Shown piece by piece: positions 3,838 through 52,031 of a DNA stretch of 64,000 bases. The position numbers were made by a program, and so were the translations under genes. Location: assembly GCA_945871425.1 (NCBI GenBank), contig CAMBVS010000015.1, positions 903 through 64,902 on the forward strand. Reading direction: 5' to 3'. The DNA comes from Rhizobium sp. Q54 (GTDB lineage Bacteria > Pseudomonadota > Alphaproteobacteria > SHVZ01). Position 1 is the stretch's first letter; every line of letters begins with the position of its first letter. Below the pieces are notes generated by a model, which worked only from the letters and a program-made list of their open reading frames with translations, did no database searches and had not been told where the DNA came from.

Positions 3838-4781
3838 TCGGCGTCTTCTCCTACCTGGTGTTCTTCGCCTGCATCGTGCTGGTCCTCGGCATCATGGCGC
3901 TCGGGCTGAACCTGCAATGGGGCTACACCGGCCTGTTCAATGCCGGCGTGGTCGGCTTCTACGCCATCGGCGCTTATACCCACGCCATCCTCATCACGGC
4001 ACCCAGGCCCGAGCTCATCGGCAATCTCGGCCTGCCCTGGGTGGTCGGCATCCTCGGCGCCATGGCCGCCAGCGCCTTTGCCGCCTGGGTGATCGGGCTC
4101 GCCACCATCCGGCTCCGCGACGACTACCTGGCGATCGCCACCTTCGGCATCGCCACGACGATCCAGTTGGTGACGCTGAATTGGGACGGCCTGACCGGCG
4201 GTGCGCAGGGTCTGTCGGCGATCCCGCGACCGCTGGTCGGCCTATTCGACACGCCGCTCGGCTTCAGTCTCTGGTATCTCGGCCTGCTGGTCGCGGTGGT
4301 CGCCGTCATCTACTGGGCGCTGGAACGGATACTGAACTCGCCCTGGGGCCGGGTGCTGAAGGCGATCCGCGAGGACGAGACCGCGGCCATCGCGCTCGGA
4401 AAGAGCGCCCGCAGCTTCCGCCTCCAGGCCTTCGTCCTGGGCTCCACCTTGATGGGCCTCGCCGGCGCGCTCTATGTCAGCTTCATCGGCTTCGTCAGCC
4501 CCTTCGATTTCCTGCCGATCCTGACGTTCCAGGTGTGGGCCATGGTGATCGTCGGCGGAAGCGGCAACAACAAGGGGGCGCTGCTGGGGGCCCTGACCGT
4601 GTGGGCAATCTGGGCTGCGTCGGGGGTCCTGATCTCGAAGCTGGTGCCGCCGGCCTATGCCGCCCAGGGCGGCGCCATACAGGTGATCCTCATCGGGCTT
4701 CTACTGGTCGTATCATTGCTGTTCCGGCCACGCGGCCTGGTCGGAGAGGTTCCAGTGGTTTCGCGTCGCGCCGATGACTAA
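3834..4781 (+). CDS. Branched-chain amino acid-type ABC permease, LivM-like
   Basis: GTGA overlap with the previous gene. Polytopic membrane protein with ...LNLQWGYTGLFNAGVVGFYAIGAY..., typical of LivM. Confidence 0.88.
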   Translation: MIGVFSYLVFFACIVLVLGIMALGLNLQWGYTGLFNAGVVGFYAIGAYTHAILITAPRPELIGNLGLPWVVGILGAMAASAFAAWVIGLATIRLRDDYLAIATFGIATTIQLVTLNWDGLTGGAQGLSAIPRPLVGLFDTPLGFSLWYLGLLVAVVAVIYWALERILNSPWGRVLKAIREDETAAIALGKSARSFRLQAFVLGSTLMGLAGALYVSFIGFVSPFDFLPILTFQVWAMVIVGGSGNNKGALLGALTVWAIWAASGVLISKLVPPAYAAQGGAIQVILIGLLLVVSLLFRPRGLVGEVPVVSRRADD

Positions 4782-22654: not shown

Positions 22655-23731
22655 CTAACGGAATCTGCTGATCCGATCCTCGTAGCCGGGGCGCGCGCCG
22701 CGGCTCTTGCTTGCGTCGAGCGGACAACCGGCATTGGCTGATGCCTGAGCAATGGCTTCACCGATGCTGGCTCTCGTGATGGCGACCAACTCGCGAAGCT
22801 TCTCCGGCTTGTCGGTTAGAGTGTCCTCTGCCAAGACTCTCTCTGCTTCGGTGACCGCAGCAGCGAACCTCGCTCGCCCTTCCTCCAAGAAACCACCTTG
22901 GACGAGATAGAGCGAGGCGGTGACCACATGCGCCAGCCGCCAGAATGGGTCCTCGTCCGGATCGGCCTCATAAGCCGCTGCCCAGCCTCGATAGTGGCTG
23001 GAATAGGCTTGGCAGGCCGCAACATAGCGGCCCTTTTCAGCGCGGAGGAAACGCGGGACATATGGGCCGCAGAAACCACACGTGCCGAAGAAGCCTCCCC
23101 AACGCGCCTCAACTGATCGTAACACGTGAGTTGTTGCGTTTCCGGGCACAAGATAGGCAATCTCAGGCAGGCCTCCTGGCCGGGCGTCTACCGAGGCGCG
23201 AGTCAGGCGTAGCACATGCATTGTATAGCCCAGCCGCATAGACCCGCCCGAACCCTCGGAGACAAAAACCGTCGGCACGCCATCGCCGAAGACGTCATGT
23301 CCGCTGGGTTCCTTCATCTCAACGTAAGTGCTCATAATCTCCCGCACGAAGCGCAATCTGACATCATGGGCCGACCGTACCGTCACCTTATGCAGGTGAA
23401 AAATCTCCCTGCGGAGGCCGTTGTCCCTCCAGACGATGGCGAGGAATGTCGGGCGGCCGTCTTGTCGGAAGACGATATGCGCGACCTGCTTCAAGTGTCG
23501 GGAGCGACCCTTCTTCAGAATGTCGAGCACGCGCGGTACCCAGGCTGGTTCGTTCATGACGGAATAGGCTAGCGGCCGGTCATCCTGCAGGGACCCAAAG
23601 ATGGAGCCGCCGCCTTCAACCGCCGCCACTTCGACAAGCTCGGACTCCTGTTCCGAAGCGATCGCGCGGACCGGCGGGCCGATCAACAGCGACAACAGTA
23701 CCGTGACGAAGAGGCCTTGTTTTTGAAGCAT
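22655..23731 (-). CDS. Hypothetical secreted protein (no family recognised)
   Basis: 358-aa ORF with signal peptide MLQKQGLFVTVLLSLLIGPPVRAIA. Cys motifs CGFCGPY, AACQAY, AGCPLD. Local G+C is lower (30/60 in 23281-23340). Confidence 0.6.
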   Translation of the reverse strand: MLQKQGLFVTVLLSLLIGPPVRAIASEQESELVEVAAVEGGGSIFGSLQDDRPLAYSVMNEPAWVPRVLDILKKGRSRHLKQVAHIVFRQDGRPTFLAIVWRDNGLRREIFHLHKVTVRSAHDVRLRFVREIMSTYVEMKEPSGHDVFGDGVPTVFVSEGSGGSMRLGYTMHVLRLTRASVDARPGGLPEIAYLVPGNATTHVLRSVEARWGGFFGTCGFCGPYVPRFLRAEKGRYVAACQAYSSHYRGWAAAYEADPDEDPFWRLAHVVTASLYLVQGGFLEEGRARFAAAVTEAERVLAEDTLTDKPEKLRELVAITRASIGEAIAQASANAGCPLDASKSRGARPGYEDRISRFR

Positions 23732-44231: not shown

Positions 44232-46961
44232 ATGCTGACGCTTGGCTCGCTCGCCTTCGCCTCACCCTGGCTGCTGGCCGCCCTCGCCGTGCTGCCGGTG
44301 ATCTGGCTGCTGTTGCGCGTCACGCCGCCGGCGCCGCGGCGCCTCGCCTTTCCGGCGATCCGCATCCTGCATCTGCTGACGCCGAAGGAAGAGACGCCGG
44401 CGCGCACGCCCTGGTGGCTGGTGCTGCTCAGGCTCGCGATCGCGGCCCTGGTGATCCTCGGCCTCGCCGAGCCGCTGCTCAACCCGGCCGCCCGGCTCGC
44501 CGGCGACGGGCCGGTGGTGATCGCGATCGACGATACCTGGGCGGCGGCGCCGAGATGGGACGATCGGCGGAAGCTGCTGCTTCGCCTGGTCGAGGAGGCC
44601 GATCACCAGAACCGTACGGTGGTGCTGCTGACGACCTCGGAAGGCAATGACGAGGCCCGGCGGTCGAGCGGCGTGCTCCGTCCGCTCGACGCCCGAGCCA
44701 TCGCCCAGGCGCTCGATCCGCAGCCCTGGGGCGCCGATCTCGCCGCGAGTCTGGCTGCGCTCGACAAGCTTCAGCTTCCTTCTGCCGCGGCGACCGCCTA
44801 TCTCGCCGACGGGCTCGACCGCGGCGCCGATCAGGTGGCGCTGATCGAGCGCCTGCAGCGGCTCGGGCGTCTTACCGTCTATGCGTCGCCGGTGCCTCAG
44901 CTCGCCCGTGCCCTCCTGCCGCCCGACGGTCTCGCCAGCGATCTCGTCGTCACCGCCCGCCGGCCGGTGGCCGGCGCCGAGGCCGAGGCCGGGATCCGGG
45001 CGATCGCCGGCGATGGCCGCCTGCTCGCTCGCGAGCCCGCGCGCTTTGCCGCCGACGGTCTCAAGACCGAGGTCAAGTTCGTGCTGCCGACCGAGCTCCG
45101 CAACCAGGTGCAGCGCCTCGAGATCGAGAACGAGGCGTCGGCCGCCGCGGTCGTATTGCTGGATGAGCGCTGGCGCCGCCGGCCCGTCGGCCTTGTCGGG
45201 CCGACCCAGTTCGACGCCTCGCAGCCGCTGCTGGACGAGCTCCACTACCTCGACAAGGCGCTGGTGCCCTTCGCCGAGGTCAGGCGCGGTCCCGTCGCCG
45301 ATCTCTTGAAGCGCGAGCTCGCGGTGATCCTGATGCCGGACAGCGGCGCGCTGCCGCCGGCCGAGAGGGCGCAGCTCACGCCCTGGATCGAGGCGGGCGG
45401 TGTGCTCATGCGCTTCGCCGGCCCGAAGCTCGCCAATGCCGACGACGACCTGGTGCCGGTCAAGCTGCGGAAGGGCGACCGCGCGCTTGGCGGCGCGCTC
45501 TCCTGGGGCCGCCCGCAACCGCTTGCCGCCTTCGATGCGACCAGCCCCTTCTCCGGTCTCGCCGTGCCCGCCGAAGTCACCGTGCAGCGCCAGGTCCTGG
45601 CGCAGCCGGGCCTGGAACTGGCCGAGCGTACCTGGGCCCGGCTCACCGACGGCACGCCGATCGTGACCGCCGAGCGCAGGGGCCAGGGCTGGACCGTGCT
45701 GGTGCACACGACGGCGATCCCGACCTGGTCGAACCTGCCGATGTCCGGCCTCTTCGTCGACATGCTCCGGCGCGTCGTCGCGCTGAGCCAGGGCGTCTCG
45801 GGCAGCGCGTCGACGCAGCCGCTGCCGCCGCTGGAGACGCTGGACGGGTTCGGGCGCATCACCGCGCCGCCGCCTTCCTCCGTCGCGTTGATCGGTGACG
45901 ATCGTGTCGGCTCCCGTCACCCGCCCGGCTTCTACGGCACCGACTCGGCCCGGCGCGCCCTCAACCTCGGCCCCTTCGTCGCCGATGCTGCTCCTCTCGC
46001 GGAGCTGCCGCGCGGCGTCGCGCGGGCCTCGTATGCGATCGGCGAGGAGACCGTGCTGAAGCCCCATCTGCTGGCGGCGGCGCTGGTTCTCCTCCTTCTC
46101 GACATCGTCATCGGCCTGATGCTTCGCGGACTGCTGCCCGGCCGGGCGCCGGTGCGGGCGGCGATCGCGCTGCTGCTTCTGTTGCCGGCCGCGGCCGAAG
46201 CCCAGACGCGTCCGGCGCCTCCGCGCGGCAACGCCGTCGATGCCTTCGCGCTCGAGGCGACGCTCAACGTCAGGCTCGCCTACGTGATCACCGGCGACGC
46301 CAGGACCGACGAGACCAGCCGGCTCGGCCTCGAGAGCCTCTCCCAGGTGCTGTCGCGCCGCACCTCGATCGAGCCGGACGCGCCGCTCGGCGTCGACGTC
46401 GAGGCCGACGAACTCGCCTTCTTCGGCCTGGTCTACTGGCCGATGGCATCCTCCCAGCCGATGCCGAGTCCGGCGGCGCTACAGCGCCTGACCCTCTATC
46501 TCAAGAACGGTGGCACACTCGTCTTCGACACGAGGGATGCCGGCGAGATCGTCACCGATCCCCGGGCCGGCGGCCCGGGCGCGCAGAAGCTCCGTGAGAT
46601 CGCCCGCGGGCTCTCGATCCCGGCGCTGGTGCCGACGCCGCCCGACCATGTGCTCAACAAGGCGTTCTACCTGCTGCACGACTTCCCCGGCCGCTTCGCC
46701 GGCGGCCAGGTCTGGGTCGAGGCGACACGGGCGCGCGGCGAGGACGAGGTCTCATCGGTCATCCTCGGATCCAACGACTGGGCCGGCGCGTGGGCTTCGG
46801 ATGCCTCGGGACGCGCGCTCTACGCCGTGGTCCCCGGCGGCGAGGTGCAGCGCGAGATGGCCTATCGTTTCGGCGTCAACCTGGTGATGTACGCGCTGAC
46901 CGGCAACTACAAGGCCGACCAGGTGCATGTGCCGGCGATCCTCGAAAGGGTCGGGCAATGA
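44232..46961 (+). CDS. Large membrane protein with BatA-type N-terminal double-TM domain and DUF4159-like C-terminus
   Basis: Track ORF 43875..46961. Start moved to ATG 44232. MLTLGSLAFASPWLLAALAVLPVIWLLLRVTPP... Third gene of the moxR operon. Confidence 0.8.
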   Translation: MLTLGSLAFASPWLLAALAVLPVIWLLLRVTPPAPRRLAFPAIRILHLLTPKEETPARTPWWLVLLRLAIAALVILGLAEPLLNPAARLAGDGPVVIAIDDTWAAAPRWDDRRKLLLRLVEEADHQNRTVVLLTTSEGNDEARRSSGVLRPLDARAIAQALDPQPWGADLAASLAALDKLQLPSAAATAYLADGLDRGADQVALIERLQRLGRLTVYASPVPQLARALLPPDGLASDLVVTARRPVAGAEAEAGIRAIAGDGRLLAREPARFAADGLKTEVKFVLPTELRNQVQRLEIENEASAAAVVLLDERWRRRPVGLVGPTQFDASQPLLDELHYLDKALVPFAEVRRGPVADLLKRELAVILMPDSGALPPAERAQLTPWIEAGGVLMRFAGPKLANADDDLVPVKLRKGDRALGGALSWGRPQPLAAFDATSPFSGLAVPAEVTVQRQVLAQPGLELAERTWARLTDGTPIVTAERRGQGWTVLVHTTAIPTWSNLPMSGLFVDMLRRVVALSQGVSGSASTQPLPPLETLDGFGRITAPPPSSVALIGDDRVGSRHPPGFYGTDSARRALNLGPFVADAAPLAELPRGVARASYAIGEETVLKPHLLAAALVLLLLDIVIGLMLRGLLPGRAPVRAAIALLLLLPAAAEAQTRPAPPRGNAVDAFALEATLNVRLAYVITGDARTDETSRLGLESLSQVLSRRTSIEPDAPLGVDVEADELAFFGLVYWPMASSQPMPSPAALQRLTLYLKNGGTLVFDTRDAGEIVTDPRAGGPGAQKLREIARGLSIPALVPTPPDHVLNKAFYLLHDFPGRFAGGQVWVEATRARGEDEVSSVILGSNDWAGAWASDASGRALYAVVPGGEVQREMAYRFGVNLVMYALTGNYKADQVHVPAILERVGQ

Positions 46962-49027
46962 CGCCCTCCGCCCTCCACATCGCCTGGGCGCCGATGCTGC
47001 CACTCTGGGCGCTGGCGATGCTGGCGGTGCTGACGATCCTCGTCGTCGGGCTCGGCCTGTTCACCCGCGCCCGCGGCGCCTGGTGGCGGACCGGCGCGGC
47101 GCTGGCGCTACTGGCCGCGCTCGCCAACCCGACGCTGGTCGCCGAACGGCGGGAGGCACGGCCGGACGTCGCCGTTCTCGTCGTCGACGAGAGCCCGAGC
47201 CAGAAGATCGGCAACCGCCTCGCCGAGACGCGGCGCGCGGCCGAGCAGCTCGCCGCCAAGCTGCAGGCGCTGCCGGGCGTCGAGCTCCGCACCGTCACCG
47301 TCGGCGGCAACGTGCTGACCTCGGAAGACGGCACGCGGCTGATGACCCAGCTCGACAAGGCGCTGGCCGATGTGCCGCGGAACCGGTTGGCCGGCGTCGC
47401 CGTGGTCACCGACGGGCAGGTCCATGATCTTCCCGCCGACAGCGCCAAGGACATCCTCGGCGCTCCTCTCCACGTCGTGCTCACCGGACAGAAAGGCGAG
47501 GCCGATCGCCGCTTGGTGATCGAGAAGGCGCCGACCTACGGCCTCGTCGGCAAGCCGATCAGCATGTCGATCCGGGTCGAGGATGCGGCGGTCGCGCCGG
47601 GAACGCCGGTGCAGGTCACCATCCGCAGGGACGGCGGCGCCGAGCAGCGGATGACGGTTCCGGTCGGGCGCACGGTCGAGGTGCCGCTGACGCTCGATCA
47701 CGGCGGCCAGACCGTGGTCGAGCTGGCGGTGGAGGCAGGCCCGAAGGAGCTGACCCTCGACAACAACCGGGCGGTCGCCGCGCTGAACGGCGTCCGCGAC
47801 CGCTTGCGCGTGCTGCTGGTCTCGGGCGAGCCCCACGCCGGCGAGCGCACCTGGCGGAGCCTGCTCAAGGCCGATCCCTCGGTCGACCTCGTCCATTTCA
47901 CCATCCTGAGGCCGCCGGAGAAGCAGGACGGCACGCCGATCCGCGAGCTGTCGCTGATCGCGTTCCCGATCCGCGAGCTGTTCGAGATCAAGCTCGACGA
48001 GTTCAACCTCATCATCTTCGACCGCTACCGTCGCCAGGGCATCCTGCCGCGCGCCTACATCGCCAATATCGCCGACTACATCGAGAAGGGCGGCGCGCTG
48101 CTGGATGCGACCGGCCCGCCCTTCGCCGGATCGCTCAGCCTCTACCGCACGCCGCTCGGCCGGGTGATGCCGGCCGAACCGACGGGACAGGTGGTCGAGC
48201 AGGGCTTCAAGCCGATGCTGAGCCCCGCCGGCCACCGCCACCCGGTTACCGCCGATCTTCCCGGCGGCGCCGGCGACGATCCCAGCTGGGGCCGCTGGTT
48301 CCGTTACATCGACGCCGAGGCCCAGCGCGGCGAGGTGGTGATGCAGGGGCCGAACGCGCGCCCGCTGCTGGTCCTGGATCGCGTCGGCAAGGGCCGGGTC
48401 GCCCAGCTGATGAGCGACCACATCTGGCTCTGGACGCGGGGATTCGAGGGCGGCGGTCCGCAGGCCGAGCTGCTCCGCCGCTTGGCCCACTGGCTGATGA
48501 AGGAGCCCGAGCTGGAGGAGAACGTGCTCTCCGCTCAGCTTCGCGGCGACCGGCTGGAGGTGGTCCGGCGGACGGTGAAGGCCGACGACCGCCCGGTCAC
48601 GGTGACGCTCCCCAACGGCGAGACCGCCAGCGTCGCCATGACCGAGGATGCCTCCGGCCGCGCCACCGGCACGCTCGCCGTCGATCAGGCCGGACTCTAC
48701 CGGCTCGCCGACGGCCAGCGCACCGCGATCTCGGCCGTCGGTCCGCTGAACCCGCTGGAATGGGCCGATGTCCGCGCCACCGACACGAAGCTCGCCCCCG
48801 TCGCCCAGGCCTCCGGCGGCTCCATCCACTGGCTGCAGGACGTGACGCCGGAGCCGCGCAAGGTGCGTCCTGGCCGCCCGGCCTTCGGCCGTGACTGGAT
48901 CGGCTTCCGCAGCAACGGCGACTTCGCCACCGTCGGCCTCGACGAGGTCGCGCTGATGCCGGCGCTCCTGGTGCTGGCGATGGCGCTCGGCATGGCGATG
49001 GTCGCCTGGCGGCGCGAGGGGAAGTAG
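46958..49027 (+). CDS. Large membrane-anchored protein, fourth gene of the moxR-type operon (GATase-like fold commonly annotated)
   Basis: Track ORF 46790..49027. ATG 46958 overlaps the upstream TGA. Has N-terminal and C-terminal TM helices. Confidence 0.75.
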   Translation: MTPSALHIAWAPMLPLWALAMLAVLTILVVGLGLFTRARGAWWRTGAALALLAALANPTLVAERREARPDVAVLVVDESPSQKIGNRLAETRRAAEQLAAKLQALPGVELRTVTVGGNVLTSEDGTRLMTQLDKALADVPRNRLAGVAVVTDGQVHDLPADSAKDILGAPLHVVLTGQKGEADRRLVIEKAPTYGLVGKPISMSIRVEDAAVAPGTPVQVTIRRDGGAEQRMTVPVGRTVEVPLTLDHGGQTVVELAVEAGPKELTLDNNRAVAALNGVRDRLRVLLVSGEPHAGERTWRSLLKADPSVDLVHFTILRPPEKQDGTPIRELSLIAFPIRELFEIKLDEFNLIIFDRYRRQGILPRAYIANIADYIEKGGALLDATGPPFAGSLSLYRTPLGRVMPAEPTGQVVEQGFKPMLSPAGHRHPVTADLPGGAGDDPSWGRWFRYIDAEAQRGEVVMQGPNARPLLVLDRVGKGRVAQLMSDHIWLWTRGFEGGGPQAELLRRLAHWLMKEPELEENVLSAQLRGDRLEVVRRTVKADDRPVTVTLPNGETASVAMTEDASGRATGTLAVDQAGLYRLADGQRTAISAVGPLNPLEWADVRATDTKLAPVAQASGGSIHWLQDVTPEPRKVRPGRPAFGRDWIGFRSNGDFATVGLDEVALMPALLVLAMALGMAMVAWRREGK

Positions 49028-49956
49028 CTTTCCGGTATCAATGGTGTTTTCGGAGATTGATCTCGGCTAATGCGGCATATCGCGCGATCGGAAATGTCTC
49101 CGGAACGATGACGAACCTTTCGGCGGCTCTAAATTGGTCGCCAATGACCTGTATGGCGAAGGCCTGCCTAAACTCGTCTCGAAGAATTGGAGCTGTGGAG
49201 AAATACTCCGTCTTCGCCGCGACAAAGAGCGACGTGGGTGATAGAGGCAGGAAAATTCGCTCGACTTCTTCCAACGTACCCCAAAGCTGAAGGGGACGAT
49301 CCGACAGAACGAGCGGTGGAGTCACACTCGAAAAGTCAACAATTCGCCAATGCAAAGCTGAAATTCCCAGCAGGCGAAGTGGCTCAAGAGCTGCATCGAT
49401 CATCGTAGCATAGATCAAATCCGTATCTTTGCCTTTGATCCTGTCATTGTAAAACTGATCGGGTTCAATCTCGCCAGTTTTCGCCTTGGGAGAATTTTTA
49501 ACAACATCACGAAAGTATTCAGATATTTCATCTTTGGATGAGTTTATTAATTTCGGTCTGCGAAGATTTAAAAACGTCAGAAAAAGCGCGAACCTTGCTC
49601 TTTCCGGCAGAGAGAGTTCGTCAACTTCCCCTGCGAGCAAGCGATCTCGAATGATCGCTGCTGGGTTATCTACGTCTTTCCCCAGCACGTCACGCTCAAT
49701 TCTATAAGGGTCGGCAGTAGGATCGCTTGTGGTGTAAAGATTTAGCTCAGATCCAAGGCTCTTAGTGCTCACACGACTCCAAGAAATCTTTTTGTGCGGC
49801 TTGTGAACGCTCACTACCAGTCCATCCTCTCCACTCCACGGTCGCATCATGAATTGCGGTAACCAGTGGTGGTTTTTGGGCTTGGACATCCGACTATCTC
49901 TGAAGGTTCGTCCCGATAGTCTCGGCTAGATCGGCGCCGGTTGTGAACGTCAAAAG
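49028..49956. other. Low-GC islet (probable horizontally acquired insertion)
   Basis: Hand count is 25/60 G+C in 49441-49500 versus 46/60 in 48961-49020. The composition step coincides with the borders of the single DUF4238 gene. The 9-nt direct repeat TCTCGGCTA lies at 49061-49069 and 49920-49928. Confidence 0.65.
49038..49889 (-). CDS. DUF4238 domain protein
   Basis: 283 aa. The N-terminal MSKPKNHHWLPQFMMRPW matches the HH-x-x-PQF signature, and the length matches the range I recall for DUF4238. AT-rich codon usage is unlike the neighbours. Confidence 0.75.
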   Translation of the reverse strand: MSKPKNHHWLPQFMMRPWSGEDGLVVSVHKPHKKISWSRVSTKSLGSELNLYTTSDPTADPYRIERDVLGKDVDNPAAIIRDRLLAGEVDELSLPERARFALFLTFLNLRRPKLINSSKDEISEYFRDVVKNSPKAKTGEIEPDQFYNDRIKGKDTDLIYATMIDAALEPLRLLGISALHWRIVDFSSVTPPLVLSDRPLQLWGTLEEVERIFLPLSPTSLFVAAKTEYFSTAPILRDEFRQAFAIQVIGDQFRAAERFVIVPETFPIARYAALAEINLRKHH

Positions 49957-50490
49957 TCAGTGGTTGGCGACCGCGTAGCCCGGATACCAGCTCGTGAACG
50001 CGATCCCGGCGACGACCAGCACGACGGGGAGTGCTGCGCGGGCCGAAGACGGCAGCCGCCAGCGCTCGCGCGGATAGGTATTGAGCGCCAGCACGACGTA
50101 GATCGCGCCCCAGACCGCGGTGATGGTCGTGACGATGTGGATCGTCAGCGGATGCGCCCATTGGGATTCGGGGACACGCTCATGCGCCCATTGCTCGGCG
50201 AAGGGATGGCCGAGCGCGATCGTGGCGAAGGCATAGAGCGCGATGCCGCCGGTCACCAGCAGGCCGGACCAGCGTTCGGCCGAGGCCTCGTGGACGAGAG
50301 TCCAGACGAAGCCGGCGGCGATGAGGGCTCCGAGCACGAGGCTGAACTGCTTCGCCGGACCGCCGAGGGCCCAGGGGGCGAGCGTCGCCGCTGCCGAGAT
50401 CAGGCTGACCAGGAGCGCCGTCCGCCGCGGCAGCAGGCGGGATGCCGCCATCAGCACGATGACTGGCAGGAACGAGACGAAGACGGCCAT
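49957..50490 (-). CDS. Hypothetical integral membrane protein
   Basis: 177 aa with 5-6 hydrophobic helices and host-like GC. No family recognised. Confidence 0.6.
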   Translation of the reverse strand: MAVFVSFLPVIVLMAASRLLPRRTALLVSLISAAATLAPWALGGPAKQFSLVLGALIAAGFVWTLVHEASAERWSGLLVTGGIALYAFATIALGHPFAEQWAHERVPESQWAHPLTIHIVTTITAVWGAIYVVLALNTYPRERWRLPSSARAALPVVLVVAGIAFTSWYPGYAVANH

Positions 50491-50756
50491 CAGTCCCTCC
50501 GTTCCCAGGGCGGGGTTGCGCCGAAACGTTCGATCAGGAGTCGGTGAAGGCGGAGTCGCGTGCCGGCAGACAAGGCTACATTCGGCCGGTGCAGACGTGA
50601 AGGCCGCGCCGCTTCGGGCAGGCGATCCTGAAGACGGCGGATAGGGCTCGGGCCGGAGCCGGCAACGTCAGAGGAGGGGCGCCCGCACCGGTCTATCCAG
50701 ACGGTCTCGCCTTCGCGTGGCGTCATGCTGCTTCTGGATGAAAAATTCGTCCAGCT

Positions 50757-52031
50757 TCATCGCGATGGCGATTTCATCTCCTTGACCACCGGCCGGCCCT
50801 CGCCCTCCAGCACCGCGTAATGCGTGAAGCCGGACGCCTGCAACCCGTCCAGCTGGCGGCCGAGCTTCTTCTCCAGCGGGAACAGGGACGGGGCCAGGCC
50901 TTCGCTCCGGAGCGCCCGCGACGCCGACAGCGCGCGGCGAAGCTCGGTGCCTTCCGGCACCAGCAACGCCGTCAGCTTCGCCTCGGTCGGCGGGGCGAAG
51001 GCCTTGTCCATTAGGATGGTGACGACGCGCTCGAAGCCGATGGAGAAGCCGCAGGCCGGCGCCTCCTCGCCCGAGAGTTTTCCCACCATGCGGTCGTAGC
51101 GGCCGCCGCCGGCGATGGAGAAGTCGTAGCCGGGCTGGGCGATCTCGAACACCGGACCGGTGTAGTAGCCCATGCCGCGCACCAGCGTCGGATCGAAGGC
51201 GACCATATAGCGGTTGCCGGCATCGGCGCCGACCGCGTCCAGGATCTCGCGGATCAGTCCCGGCACCTTGGCCTCGAGGCTGCCGCCGAGGCGCCTGGCG
51301 AAGTCCTCGACCGAGACGCCGTCGACGCCCGCGAGCATCGAGGCGAGGCGGTCGATCTGCGCTTCGGCGAAGCCCTGCTGCGCCAATTCCTTCTTCACGC
51401 CTTCGAGCCCGATCTTGTCGAGCTTGTCGAGGGTGATGAACACCGAGCCGTAGCGGGCCTCCTCGACGCCGGAGGCAGCCGCGATCGCGGTCAGGATGCG
51501 GCGGTCGTTCAGGCGGATGGTGAAGCCCTCGAAGCCGACCGCGATCAGCGCCTCGGCGGAGGCAACCAGCAGCTCGGCCTCGGCCAGGCCTTCCTCGAGC
51601 CCGATGATGTCGATGTCGCATTGGGTGAACTGGCGATAGCGGCCCTTCTGCGGCCGCTCCGCCCGCCACACCGGGCCGATCTGGATCGCCTTGAAGGCAC
51701 GCGGCAGCTGAGCACGATTGGAGGTGAAGAAGCGGACCAGCGGCACGGTCAGGTCGAAGCGAAGCCCGAGATCGACGAGGTCGTCCTCGCCGAGGCCGGG
51801 CTTGCCGAGGTCGAGCTTCTCACCCCGCTTCATCACCTTGAAGACGAGCTTGGCGTTCTCGCCGCCGTCGTCGCCGGTGAGCAGCTGGATATTCTCCAGC
51901 GCCGGCGTCTCGATCCGGGTGTAGCCGAAGCGGCGGTAGGTCTCGAGAATGCGGGCCTGCATCCAGTCGCGGATGGCGGCCTCGGTCGGCAGGATGTCCC
52001 GCATGCCGCGGGCAGGCTGTGGCTTGGACAC
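50757..52031 (-). CDS. hisS: Histidine--tRNA ligase
   Basis: GTG 52031. ARGMRDILP, LRFDLTVPLVRF, motif 2 RYRQFTQCDIDIIG, motif 3 GGGRYD, and a C-terminal anticodon-binding domain. The last of these argues against HisZ. Confidence 0.88.
   Translation of the reverse strand: MSKPQPARGMRDILPTEAAIRDWMQARILETYRRFGYTRIETPALENIQLLTGDDGGENAKLVFKVMKRGEKLDLGKPGLGEDDLVDLGLRFDLTVPLVRFFTSNRAQLPRAFKAIQIGPVWRAERPQKGRYRQFTQCDIDIIGLEEGLAEAELLVASAEALIAVGFEGFTIRLNDRRILTAIAAASGVEEARYGSVFITLDKLDKIGLEGVKKELAQQGFAEAQIDRLASMLAGVDGVSVEDFARRLGGSLEAKVPGLIREILDAVGADAGNRYMVAFDPTLVRGMGYYTGPVFEIAQPGYDFSIAGGGRYDRMVGKLSGEEAPACGFSIGFERVVTILMDKAFAPPTEAKLTALLVPEGTELRRALSASRALRSEGLAPSLFPLEKKLGRQLDGLQASGFTHYAVLEGEGRPVVKEMKSPSR

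Follow-up and report, generated by a model that had tools for sequence, protein, structure and literature searches.

How did a single gene of deviant base composition come to stand between two conserved genes, and what does its product do there? The question is raised by a short islet in the stretch of 64,000 nucleotides (hereafter the window) that we analyzed from contig CAMBVS010000015.1 (assembly GCA_945871425.1, Rhizobium sp. Q54). The islet occupies positions 49028–49956 and carries one intact gene, encoding a protein of the DUF4238 family; an earlier note, made from the sequence alone, had claimed for it a recent acquisition, a role in defense against phages and an arrival mechanism that leaves a short duplication. 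Our analysis revealed that the islet was inserted as foreign DNA among conserved core genes, with exact boundaries and no duplication of the target, and it favors as the probable explanation, with room left for doubt, a horizontally acquired cargo gene with an anti-phage product.

The evidence for insertion comes from related genomes. When species-representative genomes were scanned with the C-terminal half of the 689-amino-acid (aa) protein encoded to the left of the islet, two relatives emerged, L001 and L002, in which this flank is 95% and 87% identical at the amino acid level and 91% and 83% identical at the DNA level, respectively. Both carry the same junction without the islet, and thus provide empty sites of the kind that the earlier note had proposed to look for. 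The stop codons of the two convergent flanking genes are separated by 6 nucleotides (nt) in L001 (...AAGTAG-tgccgc-TTAAGG...) and by 0 nt in L002 (...AAGTAG-TCAGCG...), whereas the filled site of the window reads ...AAGTAG-(929 nt)-TCAGTGG.... Homology stops at 49027 against both genomes, and restarts at 49962 against L001 and at 49979 against L002. Because the flanking genes abut in the two relatives and homology breaks at that very point, the insert corresponds exactly to 49028–49956, the coordinates given in the earlier note, and has the stop codon of a convergent core gene on either side; the ambiguity at the junction amounts to 2 nt (AG), no more. An exact-pattern scan of a metagenome collection for an empty junction of the same clade gave no match.

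The empty sites and the base composition together bear out the claim that foreign DNA lies here in a conserved core context. The G+C content (GC) of the 929-nt islet is 49.1%, compared with 68% in the surrounding window, a value about 7.7 standard deviations (SD) under the window mean. Within the whole window, the 929-nt stretch of lowest GC begins at 49029 (GC 0.490; elsewhere mean 0.683, SD 0.025, minimum 0.593), and among 1-kb bins the one at 49001–50000 has a GC of 0.504, compared with 0.606–0.731 in all remaining bins. The hand counts of G+C made earlier were exact (46/60 at 48961–49020 and 25/60 at 49441–49500), with recovery to 41/60 by 49961–50020. The list of open reading frames (ORFs) likewise confirmed that the islet holds one long ORF with codon use unlike that of its neighbors: GC at third codon positions is 0.50 in this 283-aa ORF, whose N-terminus reads MSKPKNHHWLPQF, and 0.85–0.93 in eight neighboring genes. 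Three antisense ORFs of 73–77 aa are also present in the islet and are unsupported.

The protein has a single Pfam domain, DUF4238 (PF14022), matched with 96.6 bits (E-value 2.2e-27) by residues 6–230 on profile positions 1–243 of 281. The curated gathering threshold of this family is 27 bits, so that the assignment made before stands; searches of NCBIfam, PHROGs and PADLOC with the same protein gave no match. In 61 aligned sequences, including the experimentally validated E. coli protein discussed below, H8, E65, R110, W181 and D197 are invariant, and H7, P11, F13, W18, L51, Y52, D74, P112, P199, P215 and P218 are nearly invariant. The window protein keeps all of the invariant residues and holds the N-terminal histidine motif H7-H8 as well as P11, F13, W18, D74, P112, P199, P215 and P218. 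Judged from its sequence, it is an intact and very divergent member of the family. Conservation is concentrated in residues 1–112 and 178–226, with an entropy of 2.3–2.5 bits in the core, and residues 113–177 are hypervariable (mean entropy 3.18 bits; 0 of 65 positions conserved).

An AlphaFold2 model built from an alignment of 79 sequences reached a predicted local distance difference test score of 95.5 and a predicted template modeling (TM) score of 0.91. The model consists of N-terminal strands, a long helical region (residues 63–177) and a C-terminal sheet with helices. Its single significant fold match was V9IQH5, an uncharacterized protein of Stenotrophomonas phage Smp131 (Foldseek E-value 1.7e-6, probability 1.00, TM-score 0.58/0.56), to which it is 14% identical in sequence; Smp131 is a P2-like temperate phage. 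This match points to carriage by phages but gives no mechanism.

A HMMER search of 1.84 billion representatives revealed 964 relatives at E-values up to 1e-3, 18 of them below 1e-30. The closest, P0016, is 40% identical to the window protein; tblastn in 50,697 phage records returned zero hits, and homologues on plasmids are at most 31% identical. Since no relative is closer than 40%, no donor can be named. The gene for P0016 (locus L087) lies in a contig of 37% GC and matches its surroundings in composition, which hints at a low-GC reservoir.

The close subfamily, with 33–40% identity to the window protein, consists of lone genes with sharp compositional edges and a GC of 32–53% in hosts of 60–71% (Table 1); at L084, L088–L093, L106 and L107, the shortfall against the host is 10–29 GC points. 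Convergent-gene junctions account for three to four of eight contexts, too few for a claim of enrichment. In distant DUF4238 members, the GC difference has a median of −0.04, and three of four plasmid loci examined have host-like GC. Because the distant members are mildly shifted and the plasmid copies mostly host-like, the extreme AT shift is a trait of the close subfamily, and low GC does not characterize the family as a whole.

Plasmid homologues, 23–31% identical to the window protein, are found among genes resembling the cyclic oligonucleotide-based antiphage signaling system (CBASS; ThiF, MPN and nucleotidyltransferase genes), TIR genes, toxin-antitoxin pairs, DUF4145, an integrase gene and insertion sequences (IS). 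At one such locus, DUF4238 is surrounded by a CBASS-like trio, DUF4145, toxin-antitoxin pairs and an integrase gene; at another, DUF5677, NUDIX and a CBASS-like trio lie beside it; and at another, it adjoins MucR. In plasmids of Sinorhizobium (L094) and Agrobacterium (L096), the DUF4238 gene lies a few kb from CBASS-like trios of ThiF-adenylyltransferase, MPN/JAB and nucleotidyltransferase genes. In L094, moreover, the DUF4238 start follows the end of a DUF4145 gene by 4 nt, a spacing that suggests an operon of the two. An Agrobacterium vitis plasmid (L095; NZ_AP023281.1, 305405–318085) contains three tandem DUF4238 paralogues in 7 kb, interspersed with an IS5 element and two genes for TIR-domain proteins. 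The array recalls a validated E. coli TIR system that contains a DUF4238 domain (PMC11350192).

The published system nearest to the window gene is Rst_DUF4238. As the earlier note had stated, a single DUF4238 protein from a P2 hotspot is a published anti-phage system, and it confers strong resistance to T7 (Rousset et al. 2022, PMC9122126). The validated protein (clone pFR101) has 309 aa and comes from a P2-like prophage hotspot of E. coli TA007 (PMC9122126), and a 2024 survey still listed Rst_DUF4238 as unclassifiable. The two proteins are alike in Pfam family (the window protein scores 96.6 bits and the validated one 136.7 bits), in length (283 and 309 aa) and single-gene architecture, and in the invariant residues H8, E65, R110, W181 and D197. 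Both genes are AT-rich relative to their hosts, the E. coli gene having 35% GC over its first 199 nt, and carriage by prophages is also seen in relatives of the window gene. In contrast to the validated gene, the window gene is chromosomal, between housekeeping genes and outside any P2/P4 hotspot. Membership in the Rst_DUF4238 system itself, which had been suggested before, was not supported: the PADLOC model DUF4238-Pers, which gave 718 bits for the validated protein as a positive control, missed the window protein, which we therefore file as a divergent DUF4238 family member and not as an Rst_DUF4238 system. The same model touches only 2 of the 79 relatives, with an E-value of about 0.008. 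The DUF4238 models used for defense annotation thus cover a narrow enterobacterial branch, and a well-populated divergent branch, which has kept the invariant His, Glu, Arg and Asp, moves about as lone morons both in high-GC bacteria and in Mu-like prophages.

Phage morons are free-standing accessory genes in prophages. The islet resembles them as a single ORF with short flanks and odd composition, set between conserved genes and without repeats; it differs in sitting at a junction of bacterial core genes, whereas a 33%-identical relative (L105) resides in an actual prophage. With the TIR systems of E. coli (PMC11350192), the islet shares a DUF4238 domain tied to validated anti-phage activity. 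The Agrobacterium vitis plasmid homologues stand in tandem with TIR genes, whereas no TIR gene or other partner adjoins the window gene or is fused to it, according to the gene table of the locus and the single Pfam domain.

We consider it probable, though well short of assured, that the islet represents single-gene cargo of the moron kind, which was acquired horizontally and joined illegitimately to its site and whose DUF4238 product is most likely a stand-alone anti-phage protein of the abortive-infection type. Such a role is suggested by family membership, the invariant residues and the neighbors of the relatives. The 929-nt fragment, one DUF4238 ORF between a 67-nt leader and a 10-nt tail, would have arrived from a lower-GC source and been joined by illegitimate recombination, guided at most by microhomology of 2–3 nt. 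It would have landed in the 0–6-nt gap between convergent core-gene stops, disrupting nothing, and it is now seen in every member of the species that was sampled. DUF4238 is probably transcribed by read-through from the co-directional gene of a 177-aa membrane-like protein upstream. In the conserved core, the invariant His, Glu, Arg and Asp would make up a putative site of catalysis or ligand binding, and the hypervariable helical segment 113–177 would be a putative specificity or sensing part; both offer concrete targets for mutagenesis.

Several observations weigh against this reading. The window protein is only about 15% identical to validated Rst_DUF4238 in the multiple alignment; BLASTP aligns just the first 23 residues of the two (E-value 0.01), and DUF4238-Pers gives no match to the window protein at E-values up to 1. 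Foldseek against the Protein Data Bank (PDB) found no relative (best E-value 1.1, TM-score ≤0.21), and a sequence-profile search of the PDB gave zero matches. The gene is solitary among housekeeping genes, in neither a defense island nor a prophage or satellite hotspot. A scan of the minus strand for promoters revealed no sigma-70 consensus in the 67-nt leader, which also lacks a canonical Shine-Dalgarno sequence, and the only polymorphism in the islet, a non-synonymous one described below, also fits relaxed constraint. Elsewhere in the window, among 58 ORFs, the PADLOC models mad3, AriA, mad8 and ATPase-Toprim match two ORFs each (best E-value 7.7e-28). Since two ORFs also match ABC-transporter PHROGs, these are probably generic cross-matches of ABC ATPases and not defense genes.

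No second Pfam family recurs among the 79 relatives, and with this search and both PDB searches negative, the structure gave no clue to a mechanism. The leader carries a TTGACG hexamer at its 5′ edge. Prediction of a hairpin in the leader gave a fold z-score of −0.9, which is not significant, and a search of Rfam with it gave zero matches; on these two results, regulation by a leader hairpin or RNA was rejected.

What goes beyond the routine at this locus is the proof of insertion by empty sites, the recurrent behavior of the subfamily as naked single genes, and a highly confident structure model for a protein of an anti-phage family without a solved relative. The islet is a clean and well-bounded case of a single foreign gene between two core-gene stops, without mobility machinery, and such cases are useful for understanding how accessory, probably defense, genes enter genomes outside islands.

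The same islet could be a neutral or decaying passenger that entered a harmless site through a chance event of illegitimate recombination, became fixed by hitch-hiking and is now useless to its host; we regard this as unlikely, yet worth serious attention. The gene is solitary, has no partner genes and no evident promoter or ribosome-binding site, and its composition is un-ameliorated. Comparison of strains 99.6–99.98% identical to the window revealed a sole single-nucleotide polymorphism in the islet, at 49663, and it is non-synonymous (P76L), which fits a passenger; it lies two residues past the near-invariant D74, within a D74-x-P-A-A motif. The P76 allele, which is the exact protein of the window, occurs in 11 contigs and the L76 allele in 7, from many samples. 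The islet is present in every sampled contig of the species (n at least 18), at the same junction wherever the contigs include the flanks. Against a useless passenger stand the full-length ORF with every invariant residue kept in these contigs, and the relatives that were repeatedly kept as intact lone genes across independent hosts. The insertion is younger than the split from the L001 lineage, now at about 87–91% DNA identity. The claim that the gene was recently acquired therefore stands with regard to its unameliorated composition and this split, but in a loose sense only, with the islet present in all sampled contigs.

It is improbable, in our judgment, that the gene encodes a horizontally acquired DUF4238 enzyme with a function other than defense, for example in stress or nucleic-acid housekeeping. 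The branch of the window protein falls outside the defense-system profile, the biochemistry of the family is without assignment, and several subfamily members adjoin housekeeping genes such as carA and molybdopterin oxidoreductase genes. However, all functional data on the family are anti-phage, relatives cluster with defense genes, toxin-antitoxin pairs, phage genes and IS elements, and conflict genes typically show such a patchy occurrence as AT-shifted single genes.

Very improbable is a selfish origin, in which the DUF4238 protein would act on DNA in the manner of a homing endonuclease and insert its own gene past stop codons, with phage exclusion as a side effect. Besides the invariant His, Glu, Arg and Asp residues, this idea draws on the other insertion with a known empty site. 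In L105, the subfamily gene lies antisense within a Mu-like prophage, in the head module, flanked by a gpF-like and a gpI-like gene and next to gpT. The segment L105 7850–8900 corresponds to L186 3639–4735, and the empty site is found at 4737/4738 of L187, a sister prophage with 93.5% identity. The prophage insert spans 1,097 nt and starts directly after the gpF-like stop codon, with only TGA ambiguous at the junction. Both insertions thus begin directly after a stop codon, and both inserts consist of an ORF with short untranslated regions, without transposase, integrase or repeats. A self-inserting DUF4238 subfamily would, if true, explain the recurrent naked and extremely AT-shifted one-gene islets in chromosomes and prophages. 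Empty sites are known for two insertions only, however, and in the window the gap is 0–6 nt, which leaves a tolerated insertion no choice but to adjoin a stop codon. No end motif is common to the two inserts and no repeat brackets the prophage insert either, the protein has no fold or sequence similarity to a nuclease or recombinase, and ordinary vehicles exist, with one relative abutting an IS630-type transposase and others in phages.

We give hardly any credence to a small mobile cassette that duplicated 9 nt of its target, the interpretation toward which the earlier note leaned. The repeat, TCTCGGCTA, was confirmed at the two places reported (Table 1), which are its only exact occurrences in the window, where 0.28 would be expected, and a shared 9-mer or longer between end zones of 45–60 nt arose in only 0.45–0.95% of dinucleotide shuffles of the islet. 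Both copies, however, lie within the insert, 33 and 28 nt inside its ends, and the left one is coding, its codons including an A-E pair conserved among homologues. Neither empty site, TAG-tgccgc-TTA in L001 nor TAG-TCA in L002, contains a copy of TCTCGGCTA. Because both copies are internal and no empty site carries one, the repeat is not a target-site duplication, and the proposed mechanism leaving a short duplication was not borne out. A cassette-type repeat common to the subfamily was rejected as well: around the other subfamily islets there are only 7–8-mers at chance level, and the Mu-prophage insertion has no equivalent. The 9-nt repeat is best treated as coincidence.

No inverted repeat pairs the two ends of the insert. 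The earlier statement that the window contains no tRNA was confirmed by a tRNA/tmRNA scan, which found none. The companion statement on integrases and transposases holds within about 6 kb of the islet, where the Pfam table contains none, and holds in part for the whole window, with none among the best 25 of 36 PHROG families in a scan of 58 ORFs.

Read in frame, the 67-nt leader ends in ...TFTTGADLAETIGTNLQR*, resembling the C-terminus of the DUF4238 protein itself. A relic of a tandem upstream paralogue was rejected: local alignment gave a score of 16, against a mean of 17.5 in shuffles, of which 3527 of 5000 scored at least as high, and a subfamily profile left the leader peptide unmatched.

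That the gene is ancestral at the junction and was precisely deleted in the L001 and L002 lineages is barely conceivable, since this idea has no direct support beyond the fact that there are just two outgroup genomes, and it faces a third-position GC of 0.50 against about 0.9 in the host, a need for two independent deletions that each restored abutting stops with differing junction sequences, and a nearest homologue that is only 40% identical and in unrelated contexts.

Table 1. Features of the islet and its flanks (positions in the window), followed by loci of the close DUF4238 subfamily
Feature	Position	Strand	GC of gene / host	Basis or context
Inserted islet, 929 nt, 49.1% GC, missing from L001 and L002	49028..49956	.		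blastn, junction reading, composition
DUF4238 gene, 283 aa, intact	49038..49889	-		Pfam PF14022, 96.6 bits; invariant residues all kept
Leader, 67 nt, between DUF4238 start and upstream co-directional membrane-protein gene	49890..49956	-		sequence
Spacer, 10 nt, DUF4238 stop to stop of convergent 689-aa gene	49028..49037	-		direct sequence reading
TCTCGGCTA, left copy	49061..49069	+		inside ORF, codons 274-277, L-A-E-I
TCTCGGCTA, right copy	49920..49928	+		in 5′ leader, within insert
689-aa gene, last of MoxR/DUF58/BatA-DUF4159 cluster	46958..49027	+		stop TAG 49025-49027 = left edge of insert
177-aa hydrophobic, membrane-like protein gene	49957..50490	-		stop (TCA on + strand, 49957-49959) = right edge of insert
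Subfamily locus L089			0.45 / 0.66	between convergent genes
Subfamily loci L090-92			0.48 / 0.62	18 nt past carA
Subfamily locus L093			0.50 / 0.70	adjoins PrlF/YhaV
Subfamily locus L088			0.49 / 0.65	short contig
Subfamily locus L084			0.53 / 0.63	phage-like contig
Subfamily locus L106			0.32 / 0.61	adjoins IS630-type transposase
Subfamily locus L107			0.46 / 0.60	Fic gene near
Subfamily locus L105			0.38 / 0.70	Mu-like prophage

The MoxR-type operon that had been noted beside the islet was identified as MoxR, DUF58, BatA/DUF4159 and the 689-aa gene. Within about 6 kb of the islet, the neighborhood comprises MoxR, DUF58 and BatA/DUF4159 as well as tRNA-synt_His-family, GATase and CN_hydrolase genes, and no phage genes. 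The host is an alphaproteobacterium. The nearest named relatives of the flank protein belong to Azospirillum, Dongiaceae and Rhodospirillaceae (about 60% identity), so that the host is not evidently a member of Rhizobiales, the order assumed in the earlier note.

A Pfam search with the 177-aa protein encoded upstream of DUF4238, in the same direction, revealed no family. Beyond this gene, at 50490–50757, about 1.1 kb has been deleted in the window relative to both relatives (L001 2524–3895 and L002 7668–8860). What has gone is the gene of a 306-aa LysR-type regulator, which lies immediately upstream of the 177-aa gene in the relatives, together with its divergent promoter region; a 3′ piece of the regulator gene of about 80 nt (...FGATPPWERRD) is left. 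The tRNA-synt_His-family gene, the membrane-protein gene and DUF4238 now follow one another in the same direction, an arrangement that may have an effect on transcription of DUF4238. The second-lowest GC of the window (0.59–0.61) is found far from the islet, at 22655–23731, in a region with a 358-aa minus-strand ORF whose product has a hydrophobic N-terminus.

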